From NCBI RefSeq assembly GCF_024502345.1, contig NZ_JALDNN010000001.1: DNA of 64,000 nt. One strand, 5' to 3'. This stretch comes from Escherichia coli. GTDB lineage: Bacteria > Pseudomonadota > Gammaproteobacteria > Enterobacterales > Enterobacteriaceae. Made by a program: the position numbers and the translations under genes. Below, piece by piece: positions 27,927 through 55,569 of this stretch. Position 1 is the stretch's first letter, and the number at the start of each line of letters is the position of its first letter. The notes beneath the pieces are model-generated. The model was given only the letters and a program-made list of their open reading frames with translations. It was not told the DNA's origin and did not search any database.

Positions 27927-28471
27927 TTGTGCTGCGCGAAAGTAGACAACAATTTTCTTGCTTCACTATTGGCTGCCTGCATCACCATCCACGGACTGAA
28001 CGCCCACGGTGTGGCATCAATACCGTGTAATACATCTGCTAAATCACACCATTGATAATCCATCACTTCATCATCGTTGATCTGTAACGCACTGGTGGTG
28101 CGTGCGGCAAATACCGGACACACTTCATTTTCCACAATGCCATTCGGATCGGTGGCGCGATAGCGAAAGTCAGGATAGATAGATTCAGGAGGCGTAATTT
28201 CCACGCCAAGCTCATAACGGCAACGGCGGATCACCGCGTCTTCGTTGCTTTCTCCCAGTTGTGGGTGCCCACAAACCGAGTTAGTCCACACGCCAGGCCA
28301 CGCTTTTTTGCTCAGTGCGCGGCGGGTAACTAATAATTGTCCTTTGGCATTAAACAGCCAACTGGAGAACGCGAGATGTAAGCGGGTGTCTGCCGTGTGT
28401 GCGGCATACTTTTCCAGCGTACCCGTGGGAACTCCCTGTGCATTCAATAAAATGACGTGTTCCGTTTGCAT
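27923..28471 (-). CDS. idi: isopentenyl-diphosphate delta-isomerase (Nudix type)
   Basis: 182 aa; [41 protein letters not shown]... Confidence 0.93.
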
Positions 28472-28720
28472 AATTTCTCACATGTAATTCTGATCACTCA
28501 TCATTATAGATAATTGAAGAGTGAAATGATTAACCAAGTGAGCGTTTATCGACAACCGCCCGTTTTGAGCGGATGCCGACAGGTAAAAACCATTTAAAAA
28601 AGTAGCATCATATATTTGAAGCGACTTTCAATGGCCATTGCAACACAGTCAGAAATGACAGGAATAGAGAGAGTAAAAAGCAACAGCAGACTGAATATAG
28701 CGCGCATTAAAAAATTCATA

Positions 28721-30169
28721 TTATTCTCCATGCTCATTTTTCTTCAGCTTGCGCATCAGAAGCCACATACGTACTGTCCTGACTTTTAAATCTTTATCAG
28801 AGACGGATTCCTTCACCAGGTCAGCATGATGCTGATAGCCATTAAAGAAGACGTTCAGCACAACGGCGCTAAGGGTTGCGAGCATAATGCCGCTATGTAG
28901 CAGCGGTTGCAGTACGGCCGGTAACTTAGAAAAGAAATCGTGAGAGAGCGTCGGAGTCATGCCAACGCCGAGACTGATCGCCACAATATAGAGGTTGTAA
29001 CGGTTGGTGGTGTAGTTACAGCGCGACAAAATTCGAATCCCTGTCGCCAGTACCATGCCGAACATCACTAGACCAGCGCCGCCCAGCACAAATTGCGGAA
29101 TGGAGGCTACCAGCACCGCCATTTTTGGCACCATGCCAAACAGGATTAATATAATTCCCGAAGAAATACACACCCAGCGGCTATGAACGCGCGTCACGCT
29201 AACCAGGCCAACGTTTTGTGAAAATGACGTGTGGGGGAAGCTGTTAAACGTGCCGCCTATCATTGTCCCTACGCCATCGACACGCAGCCCGCGAATAATA
29301 TCGTGCGAAGAGAGTTTACGACCGACTATTTCACCCAGTGCCAGGAACATCCCCATCGACTCGATAAACACGATGATTAACACGGCAGTCATGGTCAGAA
29401 TGGAAACGGGATCGAAAATCGGCATACCAAACGACATCGGCGTAACAATCGCAAACCATGAAGCATCATGTAGCCCGGATAAATTGACTTCATTCATCAT
29501 CCACGAAAGTAAAAAGCCAAATACAATCCCCAGTAATACTGCGACGTTGGACATAAATCCTTTCGCATAGCGAGTAATGAGCAAGATAAAAATTAAGACG
29601 GCAAAGGAGATACCTAAATAAACGGGATTACCATATTGCGGATTCCCTTTACCTCCGGCGGCCCAGTCAATGCCCACCTGAATGATGCTAAGCCCGATAG
29701 AAGTAATAACCACACCGGTAACCAGTGGCGGGAATAAAGGCATCAAGCGACCGATAAGTGGCGCTAATAATGTGGTGATAAAACCCGCGGCGATAGTGGC
29801 ACCAAATATCCCCAGCAGGCCGATATCCGGGTTCATCCCAATGGCTATCATTGGTGTTACAGCAGCAAAGGTCACCGACATAATCACCGGCAGGCGGATC
29901 CCCATAAAGCGGCCGATACCGATACATTGCAATAATGTGACGATCCCGCAGCAAAAGAGATCCGAGCTAATGAGCATCGCAATAGCTTCTTTTGAGAGGC
30001 CCAGTCGGTCACCAATCATAAGAGGAACAGCGACTGCACCTGCGTACATGACAAGGACGTGTTGCAGACCGAGTATGATCAGCTTTCCTGGTGATAATAT
30101 GCGGTCAACCTCATCAGTTGGGCGGTCTTGCCCAGAAGATGAGGGAAGTTGGGAATCTATGGCGCTCAT
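28721..30169 (-). CDS. uacT: uric acid:H+ symporter (NCS2/NAT family)
   Basis: ORF 28721..30298; start at MSAIDSQLPSSSGQDR (complement of 30167-30169), 482 aa; polytopic membrane protein. Confidence 0.9.
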   Translation of the reverse strand: MSAIDSQLPSSSGQDRPTDEVDRILSPGKLIILGLQHVLVMYAGAVAVPLMIGDRLGLSKEAIAMLISSDLFCCGIVTLLQCIGIGRFMGIRLPVIMSVTFAAVTPMIAIGMNPDIGLLGIFGATIAAGFITTLLAPLIGRLMPLFPPLVTGVVITSIGLSIIQVGIDWAAGGKGNPQYGNPVYLGISFAVLIFILLITRYAKGFMSNVAVLLGIVFGFLLSWMMNEVNLSGLHDASWFAIVTPMSFGMPIFDPVSILTMTAVLIIVFIESMGMFLALGEIVGRKLSSHDIIRGLRVDGVGTMIGGTFNSFPHTSFSQNVGLVSVTRVHSRWVCISSGIILILFGMVPKMAVLVASIPQFVLGGAGLVMFGMVLATGIRILSRCNYTTNRYNLYIVAISLGVGMTPTLSHDFFSKLPAVLQPLLHSGIMLATLSAVVLNVFFNGYQHHADLVKESVSDKDLKVRTVRMWLLMRKLKKNEHGE

Positions 30170-30604
30170 CAGTGTTTCTCCTTTCGCCCGCCAGAGTAAA
30201 AAGCAACCGTTTACGTTAATGAAACTGTCTAAACACATGCTCGTGGAGTGCCAGTTTTTGCGAGGAAGGGGAGTTAGAGACAGGAATTGCGGAGGCAATC
30301 ACATAATCGTGGTTAAACCACGAAAATGAGAAGAGAACCTGACAATGAAATTATCTGTAATTTTCTCATATTGATATTTCATTAATCATTCTGGCATGTC
30401 GCACTCTCGCATTTAATCGTTTTTATCTGGATAGCGCTCTTTTGGTCGGCAATGTTGAAATAATGAAAGCGGCATAGATTGAGGGGCAATAATTTGAACT
30501 CAGTCGCAAAATTATAATTAAAACGGTCATGCTACCTAATATATGCCCGTTTATTGCATCGCGAAATTTGAGAAGACATAACTCATTAAATGAAAGGGAT
30601 GCAA

Positions 30605-32524
30605 ATGAATAAGTTTATCGCTGCTGAAGCTGCGGAATGTATAGGCTGTCATGCTTGTGAAATTGCCTGTGCGGTGGCACACAATCAAGAAAACTGGCCG
30701 CTGAGTCACAGTGACTTTCGACCGCGTATCCACGTTGTAGGGAAAGGCCAGGCTGCGAATCCGGTGGCCTGCCATCACTGCAACAATGCCCCTTGCGTTA
30801 CGGCTTGTCCGGTTAATGCTCTGACTTTCCAGTCCGATAGCGTACAACTGGACGAGCAAAAATGTATTGGTTGTAAAAGATGCGCAATCGCTTGCCCCTT
30901 TGGCGTCGTTGAGATGGTCGATACGATTGCGCAGAAATGCGACCTTTGCAACCAGCGCAGTTTCGGCACGCAAGCCTGTATTGAAGTCTGCCCAACACAG
31001 GCTTTACGGCTGATGGACGATAAAGGGTTACAGCAGATAAAGGTGGCCCGCCAGCGCAAAACGGCAGCAGGAAAAGCGTCATCAGACGCTCAGCCATCTC
31101 GCAGTGCAGCGTTGCTCCCCGTTAACTCGCGTAAAGGCGCAGATAAAATTTCAGCAAGTGAACGGAAAAACCACTTTGGCAAAATCTATTGCGGGCTGGA
31201 TCCACAACAAGCGACTTATGAGAGTGACCGCTGTGTTTATTGTGCCGAAAAAGCTAACTGCAACTGGCATTGCCCGCTGCATAACGCTATTCCGGATTAC
31301 ATCCGTCTGGTACAGGAGGGAAAGATTATTGAAGCGGCAGAACTTTGCCACCAGACCAGTTCCTTACCAGAAATCTGCGGCAGGGTATGTCCACAGGACC
31401 GTCTTTGTGAAGGCGCATGTACTTTGAAAGATCACTCTGGCGCAGTCACTATCGGTAATCTGGAACGCTACATCACCGATACCGCGCTGGCGATGGGCTG
31501 GCGTCCCGATGTCAGCAAAGTTGTTCCCCGTAGCGAAAAAGTGGCGGTGATTGGGGCTGGGCCAGCAGGGTTAGGGTGTGCTGATATTCTGGCGCGCGCA
31601 GGAGTTCAGGTCGATGTCTTTGATCGCCATCCAGAAATTGGCGGTATGCTGACTTTTGGCATTCCTCCTTTCAAACTCGATAAAACGGTATTAAGCCAGC
31701 GGCGAGAGATATTCACCGCAATGGGAATCGACTTTCATCTTAACTGTGAAATTGGCCGCGATATTACCTTTAGCGATTTAACTTCTGAATATGATGCAGT
31801 TTTCATCGGCGTGGGGACTTACGGGATGATGCGAGCAGATCTGCCGCATGAAGATGCGCCCGGTGTCATTCAGGCTCTACCGTTCCTGACTGCCCATACC
31901 CGCCAGCTCATGGGATTGCCGGAGTCTGAAGAGTATCCGCTGACGGACGTGGAAGGTAAGCGAGTCGTGGTATTGGGCGGTGGCGATACGACAATGGATT
32001 GTTTGCGGACTTCCATTCGCCTCAATGCTGCCAGCGTGACCTGCGCGTATCGTCGTGATGAAGTCAGTATGCCGGGCTCGCGCAAAGAGGTGGTCAATGC
32101 GCGCGAGGAAGGTGTCGAGTTTCAGTTCAATGTTCAGCCGCAATATATCGCTTGTGACGAAGATGGGCGTTTAACTGCAGTGGGCCTGATTCGTACCGCC
32201 ATGGGGGAGCCGGGGCCGGATGGTCGCCGTCGTCCTCGTCCGGTAGCGGGTTCAGAGTTTGAATTGCCCGCCGATGTTCTCATTATGGCCTTTGGTTTCC
32301 AGGCGCATGCCATGCCGTGGTTGCAGGGCAGCGGAATTAAACTCGATAAATGGGGCCTGATTCAAACCGGTGACGTCGGGTATTTACCTACCCAGACGCA
32401 TCTGAAAAAAGTCTTTGCTGGTGGGGATGCAGTTCATGGCGCGGATCTGGTTGTCACTGCCATGGCCGCAGGAAGGCAGGCGGCGCGCGATATGTTAACT
32501 CTGTTTGATACGAAGGCATCGTGA
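30605..32524 (+). CDS. ygfT: putative Fe-S/FAD oxidoreductase (glutamate synthase small-subunit-like, with N-terminal ferredoxin domain)
   Basis: ORF 30590..32524; start at [19 protein letters not shown]; several CxxCxxCxxxCP clusters followed by GAGPAG dinucleotide-binding motifs; 639 aa. Confidence 0.9.
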
Positions 32525-33012
32525 TGAAATCGTTAATTATCGTTAATCCGGCTGACTGTATTGGCTGCCGTACTTGTGAAGTGGCCTGTGTGGTCGCTCA
32601 CCCTTCAGAACAGGAGTTGAATGCCGATGTCTTTTTACCCCGGCTGAAGGTACAGCGACTGGACTGCATCAGTGCGCCGGTGATGTGCCATCAGTGTGAA
32701 AACGCCCCTTGTGTTGGCGCTTGCCCCGTGGGGGCGCTGGCGATGGGCGAGCAGGTGGTGCAGACCAATTCTGCCCGTTGTATTGGCTGTCAGAGCTGTG
32801 TCAGTGCGTGTCCGTTTGGGATGATCACCATTCAGTCGTTGCCGGGGGATACCCGGCAACAAATCGTGAAATGCGATCTCTGTGAACAGCGGGAAGAGGG
32901 GCCAGCCTGCGTTGAATCTTGCCCGACACAGGCGCTGCAGTTGCTTACTGAAAGAGAACTCAGGCGAATCCGCCAGCAGCGTATTGTTGCCAGCGGTGAG
33001 AATCCTCTCTGA
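32521..33012 (+). CDS. ygfS: 4Fe-4S ferredoxin-type protein
   Basis: 163 aa with four CxxCxxCxxxCP-type motifs; ATGA overlap with the ygfT stop. Confidence 0.9.
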
Positions 33013-33018
33013 AAGAAA

Positions 33019-33042
33019 TCTCCGCGCTGAAAGGCGCGGAGA
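33019..33042. terminator. bidirectional hairpin terminator between ygfS and ghxQ
   Basis: TCTCCGCGCTGAAAGGCGCGGAGA perfect palindrome between convergent genes. Confidence 0.65.
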
Positions 33043-33047
33043 ATCTA

Positions 33048-34415
33048 TTAGATTGCCCAACCACCCGCGTAAAATGCGACCAGTGCGGCAGTAATGATCA
33101 CCGTACCAATATTCAGCTTTTGCCATTCGCGTGCAAAGACGCGGCCTACGACCAGTGTCACAAAGCCCAGCATAATACCGGTAACGATATTACAAGTTAG
33201 AACGATGAACACGGCACACACCAGGCCAGCCATAGCGTCAATAAAATCATTGAAATCCAGCTTCGAGACGTTACTTAACATCAGCAAACCTACGTACATC
33301 AGAGCGGGTGCAGTGGCGTAACCAGGGATCAAAAATGACAGCGGTGATAAGAACAGAATCAGCAGGAATAACGCCCCCACTACGGTTGCGGTTAACCCTG
33401 TTTTACCCCCGGCGGCGGTTCCTGCCGCTGATTCGATATAAACCGCTGCGGGCGCTGCGCCCACCAGGCCGGAGAATATTGAACTTACTGAGTCACTGGT
33501 CAGGGCTTTGCCGCCGTTGATGATCTGGTTGTCTTTATCCAACAAATTCGCCTGACCGGCGACGGCACGGATGGTGCCAGTGGCGTCGAACACTGCGGTC
33601 ATCACCAATGCCAGTACACTCGGAAGTACAGTTGGCTGGAGTGCGCCCATAATATCGAGGCTAAAAATCAGAGACTTACCATCTTCGCCAGTCAGGCTTG
33701 GCATCGCCACCAGACCGTGGTATTTCACCGCTGGATCAAAGATTAAGCCGATGATCGAGATGGCAATAATCACCAACAAGATCCCGCCGGGTACGCGGCA
33801 CTTTTCCAGGCCGAAGATGACCGCCAGCCCCAGCAAGCTCATCATCACCGGGAAGGAGGTAAACGCACCGAGCGCCACTGGCAAGCCTTCAATCGGGTTT
33901 TTGATAACCATTCCCACACCGTTAGCAGCAATCAGCAGCAGAAACAGGCCGATACCGATACCTGTACCGTGAGCTATCCCCATCGGTAAATTACGTAAGA
34001 TCCAGGTACGCACCCCGGTTACGGAAATGGCGGTGAAGATGACGCCCATCAGAAAGACCGCGCCCAGTGCGACAGGAACGCTAATTTGTTGCCCGAGTAC
34101 CAGACTGAATGCGGTAAACGCCGTCAAGGAAATCGCGCAACCAATCGCCATTGGCAAATTGGCCCATAATCCCATCAGCAACGAGCCGAAGCCCGCGACC
34201 AGACAGGTGGCAACAAACACAGCTGCGGGAGGAAAACCTGCTTTGCCCAGCATTCCCGGAACGACGATAACGGAATAAACCATGGCCAGAAAGGTCGTTA
34301 AGCCAGCCAGTACTTCCTGACGAACAGTACTGCCACGAGCGGTAATTTTAAAATAATTATCCAGCGCGCCCTGTGGCTTTGGTGCGTCCGGTGTTTGTAG
34401 GATGTCTCCAGACAT
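33048..34415 (-). CDS. ghxQ: guanine/hypoxanthine permease (AzgA-like NCS2 family)
   Basis: 455 aa, polytopic; [34 protein letters not shown]... Confidence 0.9.
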
Positions 34416-41046: not shown

Positions 41047-42375
41047 TTATGCCAGCGCATCCATCCGACGCCACATACTGGCAGCGGCTTTTCTGGCTTG
41101 TGCATAAATGGAATCGCAATCGAAGTTAAACTGACGGTCTTCATAGACCATCACACCATTGACCATTACGCTGTGAACGCTGCCTGAGCCCATACCGAAA
41201 GCGATATGCCCGGCGATATTGTCTGCCAGCAGCGGCGTCGGCGAGTTGTAATCGCAAATGGTTAAATCAGCTTTGTAACCGGCTTCCAGAAGCCCAAATT
41301 TCGCGCCAAAGTTGCGGCTCATCAGTTCGTTACCGTTAGTCAGGGCTTTGGCAAAACTGTCAGGCCACAGCGGATCACCCGCATCGCGATGTTTAAAGAA
41401 GGCAAATTTCATCTCTTCAAACATGTCCGAACCAATGCCGTCCGTTCCCAACGCCAGATTGCGGATGTCGCTAAGGTGATGGTTGTAGCCGACATGGTTG
41501 TTCATGTTTGAACGGGCGTTATGCACCAGGAACGCATCGCGCTGATTGAGTAGGGCGATGTCATCTTTCGACAAGTACAGCCCATGAGCGACCAGCGTTT
41601 TGCTGTCGATGAGATCGAATTGCGCCAGTCGTGCCAGCAGGTCTTTGCCGTACCAGTGGTGACTGTAGGAAACGTCGTAAAGGTCTTCCGCAGCGTGAAT
41701 ATGCAAACCACGGCCTGTGGCTTTCACGGCTTCACGCAGCATCTCCAGACCGGCATCCGGCACGGTAAACGGCGCGTGAGCACCGATATGTGCTTCCACC
41801 AGATACGGCTCGCTTGTCGCTTTCTTCGCCTCATCAATCAAACGGGCGAAACGGATGTTTTCTTCTACACCTTCCTGCAACTCTTTGATGCCGTTGTTAC
41901 GGTCAGTAGTTTCAAAACAGGTCATTGCGCGCAGGCCAACTTTTAAAAATGCGTCGCGCAATGTGGAGAGCGACCCGCCGATATACGCCGGAGAGGCATG
42001 GTGATCGATAACCGATGTACATCCGCTCTTAATCGCTTCCAGGGAACAAATCAGTCCGCTGTAATAGAGCGACTCTTCATCAAGGGCGCGATCGAGCCGC
42101 CACCAGAGATTTTTCAGCGTTGAGATGAAATCCGGGCAGGGGGCGATGTTTGCCATAATTCCGCGGGAAAGCCCCGAGTAAAAATGGTTGTGCGAGCAGA
42201 CAATTCCCGGCATCACAATCCGACCATGCATCTCTTTGTAGCTGGCATCGGGGTCGCGTTGCGTCAGGGCATCGCCGATAGCGACAATCACGTCATTTTC
42301 GATAGCGATATCAACGCCTTCCTGTACTTTCGCCGGGTGTAACTGCACTGCGGTGACATTCTTCAGAATCAACAT
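41047..42375 (-). CDS. ssnA: amidohydrolase/chlorohydrolase-family protein SsnA
   Basis: ORF 41047..42441; start at MLILKNVTAVQ (complement of 42373-42375); metal-dependent hydrolase HxH motif (SHNHFYS); 442 aa. Confidence 0.9.
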   Translation of the reverse strand: MLILKNVTAVQLHPAKVQEGVDIAIENDVIVAIGDALTQRDPDASYKEMHGRIVMPGIVCSHNHFYSGLSRGIMANIAPCPDFISTLKNLWWRLDRALDEESLYYSGLICSLEAIKSGCTSVIDHHASPAYIGGSLSTLRDAFLKVGLRAMTCFETTDRNNGIKELQEGVEENIRFARLIDEAKKATSEPYLVEAHIGAHAPFTVPDAGLEMLREAVKATGRGLHIHAAEDLYDVSYSHHWYGKDLLARLAQFDLIDSKTLVAHGLYLSKDDIALLNQRDAFLVHNARSNMNNHVGYNHHLSDIRNLALGTDGIGSDMFEEMKFAFFKHRDAGDPLWPDSFAKALTNGNELMSRNFGAKFGLLEAGYKADLTICDYNSPTPLLADNIAGHIAFGMGSGSVHSVMVNGVMVYEDRQFNFDCDSIYAQARKAAASMWRRMDALA

Positions 42376-45548: not shown

Positions 45549-45573
45549 AGCAACAATCGCACCACTCTTGCCA
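45549..45573 (-). promoter_or_regulatory. candidate sigma-54 (-24/-12) promoter for ygfK
   Basis: Minus-strand read: TGGTGC-gattg-TTGCT (GG-N10-GC spacing), overlapped by TGGCAA-gagtg-GTGCG; about 75-95 nt upstream of the ygfK start. Confidence 0.4.
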
Positions 45574-45797
45574 GGTTTGGCGGGAAATATAAAAAAATGT
45601 GAGGCGGCTCGAAACTTAAGGGCTTTTTGTGAATGAACTCACAGGTGCTAAATGAGAATTAAAATCACTCCTGAAAATTATTATTGCCAGCCCATTTATC
45701 ACTTTTTCTCTTTTCTCAAAATCAGTGATTCCTTATCATTATGATAAAGAGTGCCGGAAGGATTAAATATTTGAACGCAATCGTTTAACTACGTTTT

Positions 45798-52649: not shown

Positions 52650-53846
52650 TTAAGGTGCTACAGCGTGTTTGCCTTCCCAGACAACTTCGCGGTAGTGCTT
52701 CACGTCGGTGTCGCCTTCAGTGCTGATAACCAGCACTACGGCATCTTTGTTCAGCGCCAGTTTTTCCATCAGGCTTTGACGTTGCGGGTGATAATGAACC
52801 GCCGCGAGAACGCCCAAACCGACAGCGCCGGATTCACCGGAGATGATGCGCGGGTCGTTGCCGTACGGATTACCCAGCACGCGCATACCTAATGCGGCAA
52901 CGCTGTCCTGGCAGGAGATGAATTGGGTGGCGCAGTTACGTAGGATTTCCCAGCCCAGCGGGTTAGGTTCGCCACAGGCCAGGCCCGCCATGATGGTGGC
53001 CATATCACCGCCAACGTTGACGATGTCGCCTTTGACGCCGGAGCGATAAATACAGTCAGCTTTGTCAGGTTCAACAATAATGCTATGCAGATTTTGCGGG
53101 CTGTAGACGTCGACCAGATAACCCAGCACACCACCGGCCATTGCACCGACACCAGCTTGCAGCAGAACGTGCGTCGGGGTTACGCCCATTTCACGCATTT
53201 GCTCGACGGCTTCATCTGCCAGGGTTGCGTAGCCTTGCATGATCCAGGATGGGATTTTGGTGTAACCTTCCCATGCCGTGTCCTGTACTACTTCCCAGCC
53301 GTGCTGCTGCGCGTGTTGCATGGTCAGGCGAACGGTATCGTCATAGTTCATATCCGTGACGATGCACTCGGCACCGAGGTTCAGAATGGCGTCAACGCGT
53401 TCCTGAGCAGAACCTTTCGGCATGTAAATCACCGCATTCTGTCCGAGTTGCTGCGCTGCCCACGCCACACCGCGCCCGTGGTTGCCGTCGGTGGTGGTGG
53501 CGAAAGTCATTTTTTCGCCGATGGCATTTTTCAGGTGCTCAAATGACAGCGTTTCGATATCAAGATGATATTTTTCACACAATAATTGAGCGATAGCGTA
53601 CGCACCGCCGAGCATTTTGAAGGCGTTCAGACCGAATCGTTTTGATTCGTCTTTGACAAGAATTTTCTTCACACCAAAAAGGTTTGCGAGATCGTCCAGC
53701 GCACAAAGCGGTGTTGGGCGATAACCAGCTATTTTCTGGTGGAACTGGCGCGCCAGTTTGGCCTGGCTTTGCGAAAAGAGCGGTGATGTTTCGCCGTTGA
53801 AAAATTTGTTATCGGCGATATCAATCTTCAATGAGAAAACGGACAT
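52650..53846 (-). CDS. ygeX: 2,3-diaminopropionate ammonia-lyase (PLP-dependent)
   Basis: 398 aa; fold-type II PLP enzyme; recognised as YgeX/DpaL. Confidence 0.9.
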   Translation of the reverse strand: MSVFSLKIDIADNKFFNGETSPLFSQSQAKLARQFHQKIAGYRPTPLCALDDLANLFGVKKILVKDESKRFGLNAFKMLGGAYAIAQLLCEKYHLDIETLSFEHLKNAIGEKMTFATTTDGNHGRGVAWAAQQLGQNAVIYMPKGSAQERVDAILNLGAECIVTDMNYDDTVRLTMQHAQQHGWEVVQDTAWEGYTKIPSWIMQGYATLADEAVEQMREMGVTPTHVLLQAGVGAMAGGVLGYLVDVYSPQNLHSIIVEPDKADCIYRSGVKGDIVNVGGDMATIMAGLACGEPNPLGWEILRNCATQFISCQDSVAALGMRVLGNPYGNDPRIISGESGAVGLGVLAAVHYHPQRQSLMEKLALNKDAVVLVISTEGDTDVKHYREVVWEGKHAVAP

Positions 53847-53903: not shown

Positions 53904-55094
53904 TTATTTCACGCGTTCTTGCGCTTCTTTCAGCAGTTGCTCGAGCAGTGCACCTGGTTTGGCGTATTTACGGGACAGGATCATCGCGGCGATGATATAA
54001 GGCTTCCAGCTGGCTTCTTTGTAGGTAGCGATACGGTATTTTTCGAATACGCCTTCAGTCACTTCACCTTCTTTGCAGGATACGCCGCTGATATCAGCTG
54101 GCAGGCAGTGCATGTACAGGGCTTCGCCATCACGGGTCAGTTCCATCATCTCTTCAGTACAATGCCAGTCTTTGTGTTGCGCGTTCTGTGCCAGACACTG
54201 TTTTTCCAGTGCTTTTAAGCCTTCGTGGTCGTTCGCACGCAGCAATTCAGTACGCTCTTCCATCACTTTGTAAGGTGCCCATGACTTCGGATAAACGATG
54301 TCTGCATCTTTGAACGCTTCTTCCATGCTGGTGACCTGACGGAAGCTACCGCCAGATGCTTTAGCATTGTTTTTCGCCACTTCAACCACATCCGGGATCA
54401 GGTCGTAGCCTTCCGGATGGGCCAGGGTGACATCCATACCGAAGCGAGTCATCAGACCGATGATGCCTTGTGGTACAGAGAGCGGTTTGCCATAGCTTGG
54501 AGAGTAGGCCCAGGTCATGGCGATTTTTTTACCTTTCAGGTTTTCCAGTGAACCAAAGTGTTCACGTAACCACGCGAGGTCAGCCATTGACTGAGTCGGG
54601 TGGTCAATATCGCATTGCAGGTTCACTAAAGCCGGACGCTGTGGCAGTACACCCTGCTTGTAACCGTCATCAAGTGCAGCGCCAACTTCACGCATATAGG
54701 CGTTGCCTGCGCCCAGATACATATCGTCGCGAATACCAATAGCGTCGGCGCAGAAGGAGATCATATTGGCGGTTTCACGCACGGTTTCGCCGTGAGCGAT
54801 TTGTGATTTGCCTTCGTCGAGATCTTGTTGTGCAAGGCCGAGCAGGTTAAGCGCGGAAGCATAAGAGAAGCGGGTACGGGTGGAGTTGTCGCGGAATACG
54901 GAAATACCTAATCCACTATTAAAGACTTTGGTTGAGATGTTTTCAGCACGCAGTGCTTTTAATGCTGCGGCAACGTCCAGTACTTGTTTCAGTTCATCTG
55001 GCGTCTGTTCCCACGTTAACAAAAAATCTTTCTCGTGAAGGTGAGAGGTCAGCGAATTGATATCCTTAATCAGCTCATTAACAGTTTTCATCAT
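53904..55094 (-). CDS. ygeW: carbamoyltransferase (aspartate/ornithine carbamoyltransferase superfamily)
   Basis: 396 aa; STRTR carbamoyl-phosphate-binding motif (NSTRTRFSY). Confidence 0.9.
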   Translation of the reverse strand: MMKTVNELIKDINSLTSHLHEKDFLLTWEQTPDELKQVLDVAAALKALRAENISTKVFNSGLGISVFRDNSTRTRFSYASALNLLGLAQQDLDEGKSQIAHGETVRETANMISFCADAIGIRDDMYLGAGNAYMREVGAALDDGYKQGVLPQRPALVNLQCDIDHPTQSMADLAWLREHFGSLENLKGKKIAMTWAYSPSYGKPLSVPQGIIGLMTRFGMDVTLAHPEGYDLIPDVVEVAKNNAKASGGSFRQVTSMEEAFKDADIVYPKSWAPYKVMEERTELLRANDHEGLKALEKQCLAQNAQHKDWHCTEEMMELTRDGEALYMHCLPADISGVSCKEGEVTEGVFEKYRIATYKEASWKPYIIAAMILSRKYAKPGALLEQLLKEAQERVK

Positions 55095-55184: not shown

Positions 55185-55200
55185 AACAATAAGTGTGCCA
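55185..55200 (-). promoter_or_regulatory. candidate sigma-54 promoter for the ygeW operon (perfect -24 TGGCAC, weak -12 TTGTT)
   Basis: Minus-strand read: TGGCAC-actta-TTGTT, about 90 nt upstream of ygeW and divergent from the sigma-54 activator gene ygeV. Confidence 0.35.
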
Positions 55201-55569
55201 GAATTATCCGCGCGGCTGCAAAAGACTAATTTGACGGATAATGTGTGGGGTTGATCACAAATTGATGCCAGCTTCTGGTTGTTTGTAAAATACGAAAACG
55301 TTTGGCTTTTTTTATCGCGTTATTTATTTGCTGCTAAGTATCAGAAATAAGATAAAGGGGCAGGCTATCTCTCTTCAGTTTGATAAACTCACCGCCGTAA
55401 TTCTCATATTGATATAGAAATGTGATATCTCTTCCATAATTTCATTAGAAAATGATAAAAATCTTATGTTTTTATCAAAGCCAATTTCGCCTGAGTTAAT
55501 ATCATCATGATCTGTGAACCATCAACGTCTTCAATGATCGACTTTTAAGTAAGTCTGGAAGGTAAAGCT

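Follow-up and report, generated by a model that had tools for sequence, protein, structure and literature searches.

The question raised by the uacT-ygfT-ygfS locus of Escherichia coli is what the products of ygfT and ygfS contribute to the degradation of urate, and how their synthesis is tied to that of the urate transporter UacT. We analyzed this locus as part of a 64,000-nucleotide stretch of E. coli DNA (contig NZ_JALDNN010000001.1 of RefSeq assembly GCF_024502345.1), referred to below as the window. The catalytic steps of the urate pathway are now known, and the remaining interest lies in the electron-supply role of YgfT/YgfS and in the architecture of the control region between uacT and ygfT; the comparative evidence presented here turns both into specific, testable statements. 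YgfT and YgfS most likely constitute an electron-transfer module and not a urate-converting enzyme, because they have no substrate-binding catalytic domain.

According to the model that we favor, urate would be taken up by UacT and formate would be oxidized by formate dehydrogenase H (FDH-H, the product of fdhF). YgfS would dock on FdhF and hand the electrons to YgfT, first to its N-terminal domain, which likewise has four clusters and is homologous to YgfS; from there they would pass through the two clusters of the Fer4_20 domain to flavin adenine dinucleotide (FAD) and on to the pyridine nucleotide NAD(P)+. The NAD(P)H formed would be spent by XdhD-YgfM, for the conversion of urate into 2,8-dioxopurine, and by YgfK, for dearomatization. 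Uptake and reductant supply would be co-activated from one enhancer that serves two divergent sigma-54 promoters, with modulation by PurR and by regulators of the CRP/FNR type. The need of urate degradation for formate and fdhF would be accounted for by such a chain, which leads from FdhF via YgfS and YgfT to NAD(P)H. We give the model as a whole a probability of roughly 55%. It is essentially the hypothesis of Iwadate & Kato, sharpened by the adaptor role proposed for YgfS and supported by the neighborhood of fdhF in other genera.

The elements concerned, the genes being identified from the list of open reading frames, RefSeq and domain searches, are the following:

28721-30169, minus strand: uacT, an NCS2 urate/proton symporter of 482 amino acids counted from the ATG
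30170-30604: spacer between uacT and ygfT, 435 bp, 39% GC versus 51% for the whole window
30605-32524, plus strand: ygfT, 639 amino acids
32524-33012, plus strand: ygfS, 162 amino acids, a HydN/HycB-like ferredoxin with four [4Fe-4S] clusters

The window is an E. coli-type chromosome, and the 6 kb around the locus matches 5419 of 5426 complete E. coli genomes with 95-99.1% identity. RefSeq annotates the identical three genes in identical order at the matched loci, under the names "urate/proton symporter UacT" and "formate-dependent uric acid utilization protein YgfT" (NCBIfam gives YgfT the latter name, too). The ATG of ygfS shares one base with the TGA of ygfT (GTGATG), and ygfS is translationally coupled to ygfT. 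On the other side of ygfS lies the selenium/molybdenum (Se/Mo) hydroxylase cluster, with ghxQ, guaD, xanQ, xdhD, ygfM, ssnA, ygfK, mocA, yqeC, yqeB and onward. An earlier reading made from the letters alone (the sequence-only reading) had given these gene identities and coordinates, the divergent layout, the AT-rich spacer of 435 bp and the adjacency to the hydroxylase genes; all of this agrees with the open reading frames, the base composition and the RefSeq gene order.

The same reading had proposed a reductive rather than an oxidative route for urate, and such a route has been shown biochemically. XdhD-YgfM converts urate into 2,8-dioxopurine with NADH, YgfK/SsnA then use NAD(P)H to dearomatize and open the ring, and the later steps to pyruvate are carried out by HyuA, YgeY, YgeW/YqeA and YgeX (PMC12507026); the same reductive pathway was reported independently in a preprint (10.1101/2025.04.24.650524). 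The locus is thus already annotated and largely explained, and the proposal of a reductive route has been overtaken by these publications of 2025. Still valid is the remark that no reaction and no partners have been defined for YgfT/YgfS: ygfT and ygfS have 0 occurrences in both studies, and a 2021 review calls the function of the AegA/YgfT family unknown. According to papers citing Iwadate & Kato 2019, urate degradation by E. coli at low oxygen requires aegA or ygfT, formate and FDH-H, which bears out the implication of YgfT in formate-dependent urate degradation; the proposal made there, as rendered by the citing papers, was that AegA/YgfT relay electrons from the dehydrogenase to NADP+ or to urate. 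Expression of ygfT is strongly induced by urate, that of aegA only modestly. Mutation of ygeV lowers ygfT expression, and a single YgeV iModulon/co-expression module includes both ygfT and uacT.

Domain searches against Pfam and NCBIfam/TIGR models agree with the descriptions of all three proteins in the sequence-only reading. UacT is a Xan_ur_permease of the NCS2 family (PF00860, E 6e-124; xanthine-permease subfamily model TIGR03173, 509.8 bits versus a cut-off of 414). Its specificity for urate is probable from its 99.8% identity to the RefSeq protein of that name and from Papakostas & Frillingos 2012 as cited elsewhere. YgfT matches the equivalog model NF009451 over residues 1-639 of 639 (1499.4 bits versus a cut-off of 1154). 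It consists of a HydN-like 4Fe-4S region (1-157), a Fer4_20 domain (188-298; PF14691, E 1e-36) and a Pyr_redox_2 domain (312-623; PF07992, E 2e-26). Apart from the Fer4-type, Fer4_20 and Pyr_redox_2 domains of YgfT and the Fer4 domains of YgfS, the Pfam search gave nothing for the two proteins; neither showed a molybdenum, flavin mononucleotide (FMN) or TIM-barrel domain. Sixteen N-terminal cysteines of YgfT fall into four cluster motifs of the CxxCxxCxxxC type (12-22, 56-68, 87-97 and 112-129) and eight more lie in Fer4_20; with the 16 cysteines of YgfS, arranged in four [4Fe-4S] motifs, the two proteins together have ten such motifs. YgfT also has two dinucleotide sites, the FAD motif GAGPAG at 317-322 and an NAD(P)H site of the form GGGDT...YRRD (V454-D465, with YRRD at 482-485).

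These cofactor motifs are strongly conserved. Across 10 YgfT orthologues (58-93% identity) the 16 N-terminal cysteines and GAGPAG are invariant, as are seven of the eight cluster-ligand cysteines of Fer4_20, the eighth (C272) being present in at least 90%. The NAD(P)H stretch V454-D465 is invariant but for position 463, and Y482-R483-R484-D485 does not vary. All 16 cysteines of YgfS are invariant in nine orthologues (44-88% identity).

The direction of electron flow can be considered in the light of the solved relatives of YgfT. Residues 176-631 align end to end with GltD, the beta subunit of NADPH-glutamate synthase (6s6s, E 1e-108), and also with NfnB, and the YRRD motif, which is common to YgfT and the NADPH-dependent GltD, suggests that YgfT may prefer NADPH. 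The alignment with GltD takes in the two-cluster Fer4_20 segment, the FAD site and the NADPH site; the N-terminal half of dihydropyrimidine dehydrogenase belongs with GltD and NfnB to the closest known systems. Unlike these, YgfT has no catalytic partner domain, whether GltB-like, FMN or NfnA-like, and has an N-terminal polyferredoxin instead. GltD, the closest solved relative, runs from NADPH to its iron-sulfur (Fe-S) clusters, as is established for glutamate synthase, and a review names among the options that an acceptor in the pathway is reduced at the expense of NAD(P)H. YgfT could accordingly act as an NADPH:ferredoxin-type reductase that reduces YgfS, and through it the Mo hydroxylase or the maturation of the Se/Mo cofactor, formate being needed for some other purpose. 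This reversal is improbable, however: it leaves unexplained both the dependence on formate and FDH-H and the presence of fdhF in the divergent unit of three genera (see below), and NADPH (-320 mV), to judge from established redox values, would be a poor donor for low-potential clusters of the HycB type.

The kinship with NfnB, which is a close solved relative of the C-terminal part of YgfT (4ylf, 5jca), brings up flavin-based bifurcation or confurcation of the Nfn type, by which the YgfT flavin would couple the formate/ferredoxin and NAD(P)H pools for a difficult reduction. The possibility has been raised for AegA in a review, and the urate fermenter G. acidurici employs a bifurcating formate dehydrogenase. 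Yet no NfnA-like partner (FAD plus [2Fe-2S]) is encoded beside ygfT in eight lineages, and the best match of YgfT is GltD and not NfnB. We regard bifurcation as the least likely of the readings considered here.

The N-terminal part of YgfT and the whole of YgfS point to FdhF as the electron source. Among solved structures, YgfS and the first 104 residues of YgfT (1-104) come closest to HycB from E. coli formate hydrogenlyase (7z0s_B, E ~1e-30) and to HycB3/HycB4 (7qv7) of hydrogen-dependent CO2 reductase; these relatives are ferredoxins that accept the electrons of FdhF. HycB, HydN and YsaA, and likewise HycB3/HycB4, have the same 16-cysteine four-cluster pattern as YgfS and the YgfT N-terminus, and the ferredoxin-like proteins HycB, HydN and YsaA have been placed in one paralogous group with them (Pinske 2018). 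YgfS scores 134.5 bits on the HydN equivalog NF007658, under the cut-off of 260, and is a paralogue and not HydN itself; its output is predicted to be the flavoprotein, unlike the hydrogenase served by HycB. FdhF is held only loosely by HycB in formate hydrogenlyase. For HydN and YsaA a role in channeling the electrons of FDH-H toward alternative acceptors has been proposed, and two-hybrid tests showed binding of AegA to HydN, YsaA and HycB but not to FdhF (Pinske 2018). Both the loose binding and this two-hybrid pattern fit a small ferredoxin such as YgfS as adaptor, which suggests that a HydN-type ferredoxin may connect FdhF to the flavoproteins AegA and YgfT, YgfS being the obvious candidate for an adaptor dedicated to YgfT.

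AegA, the E. coli paralogue (NF009408), has the same composition as YgfT, namely a HydN-like region with four [4Fe-4S] clusters, then Fer4_20, then a flavin domain resembling GltD. Against the AegA model YgfT reaches 950 bits, under the cut-off of 1003. The gene aegA presumably stands alone in E. coli, beside narQ. Both AegA and YgfT are reported, in papers citing the original study, to be required for formate-dependent urate degradation. Unlike aegA, ygfT is strongly induced by urate and has a dedicated downstream ferredoxin gene, ygfS; the AegA-type protein of Buttiauxella does have a YgfS-like partner.

A parallel for the complete chain is provided by NAD(P)-linked formate dehydrogenases. 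The NADP-dependent formate dehydrogenase of Moorella thermoacetica consists of FdhF-type and GltD/NfnB-like subunits, and in the solved chains 9bov_A and 8oh5_C a GltD-like module is fused to a molybdopterin-oxidoreductase-like module. The logic that we propose is the same as in these enzymes: from a formate site with molybdenum or tungsten and selenocysteine, via Fe-S clusters and a GltD-like flavin, to pyridine nucleotide. Unlike them, the predicted YgfT system would consist of separate proteins and would share FdhF with the hydrogenlyase. Stated at its most specific, FdhF, YgfS and YgfT would be a soluble formate:NAD(P)+ oxidoreductase whose sole task is to drive the reductive degradation of purines, YgfS being the docking adaptor that diverts FdhF from the hydrogenlyase. 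The electron module and the transporter would be switched on jointly by a single-palindrome, bidirectional sigma-54 enhancer that also responds to purine sufficiency (PurR), carbon status (CRP) and probably oxygen (FNR-like); this version we hold only tentatively, at somewhat less than even odds. If true, it would add an activity that has not been credited to E. coli.

Evidence of another kind was obtained from gene neighborhoods. Representative genomes were scanned with YgfT (12 close loci), together with contigs encoding YgfS homologues, and the eight lineages covered show three arrangements:

Type A, Escherichia, Citrobacter and Pseudocitrobacter: uacT divergent from ygfT-ygfS, then ghxQ-guaD-xanQ-xdhD-ygfM-ssnA (ygfK is seen only in the window, the other loci ending earlier)
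Type B, Klebsiella, Enterobacter and Serratia: a permease gene followed by fdhF, divergent from ygfT-ygfS, with ssnA-ygfK next in Klebsiella and Enterobacter
Type C, Buttiauxella and Mixta: an operon for a fused XdhAB-type Mo hydroxylase, divergent from AegA/YgfT-type and ygfS-like genes, beside ygeV

The fdhF genes of type B are, to judge from their coding sequences, genuine and selenocysteine-encoding. Their products of 715-717 amino acids reach 1045 bits with the TIGR01591 model and 1527 bits with E. coli FDH-H (1aa6); in all three genera an in-frame TGA is found at codon 140 within CCARV-U-HGP. The permease of Serratia is a UacT orthologue (82%) and the fdhF start lies ~54 bp 3' of its gene; the flavoprotein of Klebsiella passes the YgfT equivalog cut-off (1206.8 bits versus 1154). 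A ygfS-like gene trails the ygfT-like gene in every lineage examined except Citrobacter sp. R56, and the start/stop overlap is found wherever coordinates were read. No description of fdhF beside the permease and ygfT-ygfS was found in the literature searched. The type B arrangement suggests, independently of the protein comparisons, that FdhF, YgfS and YgfT may act in one chain.

The Mo hydroxylases encoded near the cluster in Klebsiella, Enterobacter and Serratia are of the fused XdhA-XdhB type (1068-1071 amino acids) with a separate 2Fe-2S subunit of 152 amino acids, and not of the XdhD-YgfM type. In Klebsiella and Enterobacter guaD, xanQ and ghxQ are missing between ygfS and ssnA.

The neighborhoods also bear on the main rival of our model, which is that no free NAD(P)H takes part and that the clusters of YgfS and YgfT conduct the electrons of FdhF directly to those of XdhD-YgfM and/or YgfK, into their Fe-S chains. 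Low-potential formate would then drive reductions that are thermodynamically tight, and YgfT would have its flavin/NAD(P)H site as a side entrance or safety valve. YgfT-YgfS is always encoded near, and often divergently from, a Mo enzyme of the xanthine dehydrogenase family (Buttiauxella, Mixta; in E. coli xdhD is four genes away). The 2,8-dioxopurine dehydrogenase of clostridia depends on a low-potential donor and makes no use of NAD(P)H (10.1101/2025.04.24.650524), the YgfK step has been described as thermodynamically unfavorable by itself, and transfer "directly to uric acid" was, as far as citing papers convey them, among the original proposals. However, the Mo enzymes of E. coli and of the Buttiauxella type have an FAD subunit or domain of their own and XdhD-YgfM works with NADH, and a pure wire would not require the near-invariant NAD(P)H motif of YgfT. 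We consider direct wiring unlikely; reverse flow, bifurcation and an accessory or redundant role (see below) are less likely still.

Selection on the genes was compared by the ratio of nonsynonymous to synonymous substitution rates (dN/dS), which is ~0.07 for ygfT, 0.09-0.16 for ygfS and 0.014-0.033 for uacT, ghxQ, guaD, xanQ and xdhD (0.014-0.03 for uacT alone). This shows that ygfT and ygfS are under purifying selection that is 2-10 times less stringent than that on the other five genes. The pair is also a local divergence hotspot: compared with other Escherichia, YgfT is 91-93% and YgfS 88-91% identical, versus 95-99% for the flanking proteins, and only nine E. coli genomes are at least 99% identical over ygfTS, versus 90 over the 6-kb region.

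Losses were seen as well. The ygfS gene is cleanly absent from Citrobacter sp. R56 (L005, 11911-11975), where ~60 bp separate ygfT from the end of ghxQ and the rest of the cluster is intact. Among 5426 complete E. coli genomes, 222 (~4%) gave no ygfT-ygfS match. In one of these losses, E. coli PK8217 (L019, 4001-5490), the insertion sequence IS1 replaces everything from ygfT codon 16 to mid-ygeV, with loss of the whole uricolytic cluster.

That ygfS has the highest dN/dS of the region, was lost in one Citrobacter and is missing together with ygfT from ~4% of complete E. coli genomes would be expected if its role were accessory, YgfS (perhaps with the ferredoxin domain of YgfT) stabilizing FdhF as has been proposed for HydN, or if the pair were a partly redundant, decaying duplicate of AegA and HydN/YsaA. 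HydN and YsaA indeed raise the dye-linked activity of FDH-H and leave H2 production unaffected (Pinske 2018). Such a role is nevertheless very unlikely: the 16 cysteines of YgfS are invariant down to 44% identity, the pairing of ygfT with ygfS persists in the other lineages examined, and the one E. coli loss examined is the IS1 deletion of the whole cluster and not of ygfTS alone.

The second part of our model, joint control of uptake and reductant supply, concerns the 435-bp spacer. An alignment of seven Escherichia/Citrobacter sequences shows discrete invariant blocks in it. The features identified in and near the spacer are:

30201-30216, minus strand: PurR-type operator ACGTAAACGGTTGCTT in the predicted uacT leader, ~+12 to +27
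30238-30254, minus strand: predicted sigma-54-type uacT promoter CTGGCACTCCACGAGCA, GG/GC properly spaced, 9.3 bits
30288-30303, no strand assigned: CRP-type dyad TGCGGAGGCAATCACA, centered ~-68.5 from the predicted uacT start
30364-30376, no strand assigned: palindromic upstream activating sequence TCTCATATTGATA, candidate YgeV (UacR) site for both promoters
30493-30508, no strand assigned: second CRP/FNR-family dyad TTTGAACTCAGTCGCA, centered ~-68.5 from the predicted ygfT start
30542-30558, plus strand: ygfT sigma-54 promoter TATGCCCGTTTATTGCA with a weak -24 and a good -12 element, invariant in the seven sequences
30882-30897, minus strand: PurR-like motif GGGCAAGCGATTGCGC inside ygfT, 14.0 bits, below the uacT-leader box

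This arrangement suggests that the spacer is a conserved bidirectional sigma-54 control region in which one palindrome would serve two divergent promoters, the promoter and transcription start of uacT being predicted. The predicted starts lie near 30227 (minus strand) for uacT and near 30569 (plus strand) for ygfT.

Occupancy by sigma-54 at ygfT has been shown by chromatin immunoprecipitation (ChIP): TATGCCCGTTTATTGCA has the sequence of the sigma-54 ChIP-seq site OS32, assigned to ygfT and 36 bp upstream of the gene (PMC4591121). Its -12 element TTGCA is perfect, its -24 element has TGC instead of GGC, and its score is 4.0 bits. For the predicted uacT promoter, TGGCA and GAGCA are invariant in the seven sequences, and Klebsiella, Enterobacter, Buttiauxella and Mixta have canonical sigma-54 promoters (13.5-18.9 bits) at the homologous position, equally far from the palindrome. 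A sigma-70 promoter was not found in the spacer; the scan of 4.8 kb gave five matches, all intragenic, versus 5.3 expected. Nor did Rfam (28000-33500, E<=1) reveal a known riboswitch or small RNA in the spacer, the single small-RNA match (28548-28650) being at chance level.

Alternative gene starts were considered. The long uacT reading frame that begins with TTG (to 30298) was rejected, since it overlaps an invariant promoter block and differs from the annotated start. An in-frame ATG of ygfT at 30590 is less likely than that at 30605, which is preceded by the Shine-Dalgarno sequence AAAGGGA; all orthologues begin with MNKF.

The pattern of the palindrome, TMTCANNNTGATA, has six matches in the window versus 0.07 expected, to which the exact 12-mer upstream of xdhA is added. 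This 12-mer, as present in the spacer, is found again at 55403-55414 and at 61220-61231, and the copy at 45734-45746 is a perfect palindrome (TATCA-N3-TGATA). These copies are located 100-200 bp upstream of each other ChIP-mapped sigma-54 site of the cluster (ygeW, ygfK and xdhA):

45734-45746: TATCATAATGATA, upstream of ygfK, ~170 bp upstream of the sigma-54 site 45549-45565
55402-55414: TCTCATATTGATA, in the ygeW-ygeV spacer, ~200 bp upstream of the ygeW sigma-54 site 55185-55201
61219-61231: TATCAATATGAG, in reverse orientation, upstream of xdhA, ~100 bp upstream of the sigma-54 site 61106-61122

Thus a dyad-symmetric site lies upstream of all four ChIP-mapped sigma-54 sites of the cluster. 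Each ygfT-upstream spacer of the eight lineages has exactly one copy, 108-128 bp from the minus-strand promoter. We take the palindrome at 30364-30376 as a candidate enhancer site for YgeV/UacR that would serve both promoters.

A further perfect copy, TATCAAGATGATA, lies inside ygeX (dpaL) at 53558-53570. IHF is unlikely as the binder of the palindrome, given its dyad symmetry, its mismatch to WATCAANNNNTTR and its position 110-200 bp upstream and not between enhancer and promoter. A 16-nucleotide direct repeat, AAnCACATnnTCGTGG (30231/30297), was attributed to chance, each copy being conserved only in part.

The two CRP/FNR-family dyads flank the shared palindrome. Both half-sites of TGCGGAGGCAATCACA are invariant in the seven sequences and its spacer is variable; Klebsiella and Enterobacter have TGTGAAATCAATCACG and TGTGAATGGAGTCACG, respectively, at the same position. 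The second dyad keeps the form TTTGA-N6-TCGCA in Escherichia, Citrobacter, Pseudocitrobacter, Klebsiella and Enterobacter, and Serratia has TTTGAGCCAATTCACA. Elsewhere in the window, a perfect CRP consensus, TGTGAATGAACTCACA, lies upstream of ygfK (45628-45643) and a site with one mismatch, TGTGGGGTTGATCACA, in the ygeW-ygeV spacer (55244-55259). Repression of urate degradation by glucose has been reported, with a CRP site in the ygeV-ygeW spacer, and the sites at ygfK and in the ygeW-ygeV spacer are consistent with it.

PurR sites were scored with a matrix derived from 21 ChIP-mapped PurR sites in other parts of the genome, whose own scores range from 14.0 to 25.8 bits. The box in the predicted uacT leader, ACGTAAACGGTTGCTT, is a 16-bp palindrome of the type ACGNAAACGTTTGCNT and with 19.8 bits the top-scoring site of the whole window; it outscores the ChIP-confirmed ygfK and gcvT sites and the motif inside ygfT. 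Its score is identical or near-identical in the four Escherichia/Citrobacter loci scanned, and its core is invariant in the alignment of seven sequences. The matrix scan did not find it in the spacers of Klebsiella, Serratia or Buttiauxella. Cho et al. reported a PurR ChIP-chip region "ygfT-ygfS", which covers the 5' end of ygfT and part of the spacer, and assigned it to GGGCAAGCGATTGCGC; conservation of this motif is uninformative because it lies inside coding sequence. Another PurR-type box, ACGAAAACGTTTGGCT (17.7 bits, 55292-55307), lies between the ygeW sigma-54 promoter and the palindrome, and is absent from the published PurR ChIP table.

A similar layout is known from the formate regulon. 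The hycA and hypA promoters of E. coli are activated by FhlA from sites between them. Its two back-to-back sigma-54 sites, both in the ChIP table (PMC4591121), resemble the pair proposed for the uacT/ygfT spacer. Unlike at hycA/hypA, the activator at uacT/ygfT would presumably be YgeV, acting through the palindrome TATCA-N3-TGATA, with PurR and CRP/FNR-type sites in addition.

Several observations weigh against our model. When NAD(P)H is supplied, XdhD-YgfM and YgfK are active in vitro also if YgfT/YgfS are absent (PMC12507026), so that the module is not catalytically essential and any source of NAD(P)H could substitute for it. No interaction of AegA with FdhF was seen, and deletion of aegA left the dye activity of FDH-H unchanged (Pinske 2018). 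In E. coli fdhF is unlinked to ygfT-ygfS; ygfS is under weaker constraint than any other gene of the region, is missing in Citrobacter sp. R56 and, unlike ygfT and uacT, does not appear in the YgeV iModulon listing. As to the control region, the sigma-54 score at uacT is by itself not significant (57 sites of at least 9 bits in the window, ~0.4 expected in the spacer), this promoter is absent from the main-text sigma-54 ChIP table (PMC4591121), and the published PurR ChIP region stops, by our coordinate estimate, ~100 bp before it reaches the uacT-leader box.

Gut bacteria account for the removal of a substantial part of human urate, and work is under way to build the E. coli cluster into probiotics that lower urate; the engineered strain described so far is altered only in the ygeV-ygeW promoter region. 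If the four reducing equivalents that the pathway takes up in vivo come from formate via FdhF, YgfS and YgfT, flux through the pathway in the gut would hinge on formate, on Se/Mo status and on expression of the divergent unit. The map of the control region offers concrete targets, namely the palindrome, the PurR box and the CRP site, for lifting purine and glucose repression of urate uptake.

Some minor features of the surroundings remain to be described:

28594-28719, minus strand: yqfG, a 41-amino-acid reading frame annotated in RefSeq, separated from uacT by a one-base gap
33019-33042, minus strand: GC-rich, terminator-like hairpin with a T-run, between the convergent genes ygfS and ghxQ

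Being on the minus strand, the hairpin is read as the terminator of ghxQ; it may also terminate the ygfTS transcript. Sense-strand sigma-54-like motifs lie inside ygeW (CTGGCACAGAACGCGCA, 13.6 bits, 54178-54194, minus strand) and inside ssnA (CTGGCACGACTGGCGCA, 15.3 bits, 41621-41637, minus strand), the latter upstream of ygfM-xdhD, for which it may be an internal promoter that drives the urate reductase genes. Reading frames of 42-44 amino acids that resemble yqfG and have a common ..SRF.. motif lie 3' of the permease gene in Klebsiella and Pseudocitrobacter (L016, 5931-6059; L022, 4072-4206). The Klebsiella permease that precedes one of them is only 41% identical, and the conservation of yqfG suggests a small partner protein of NCS2-type transporters.

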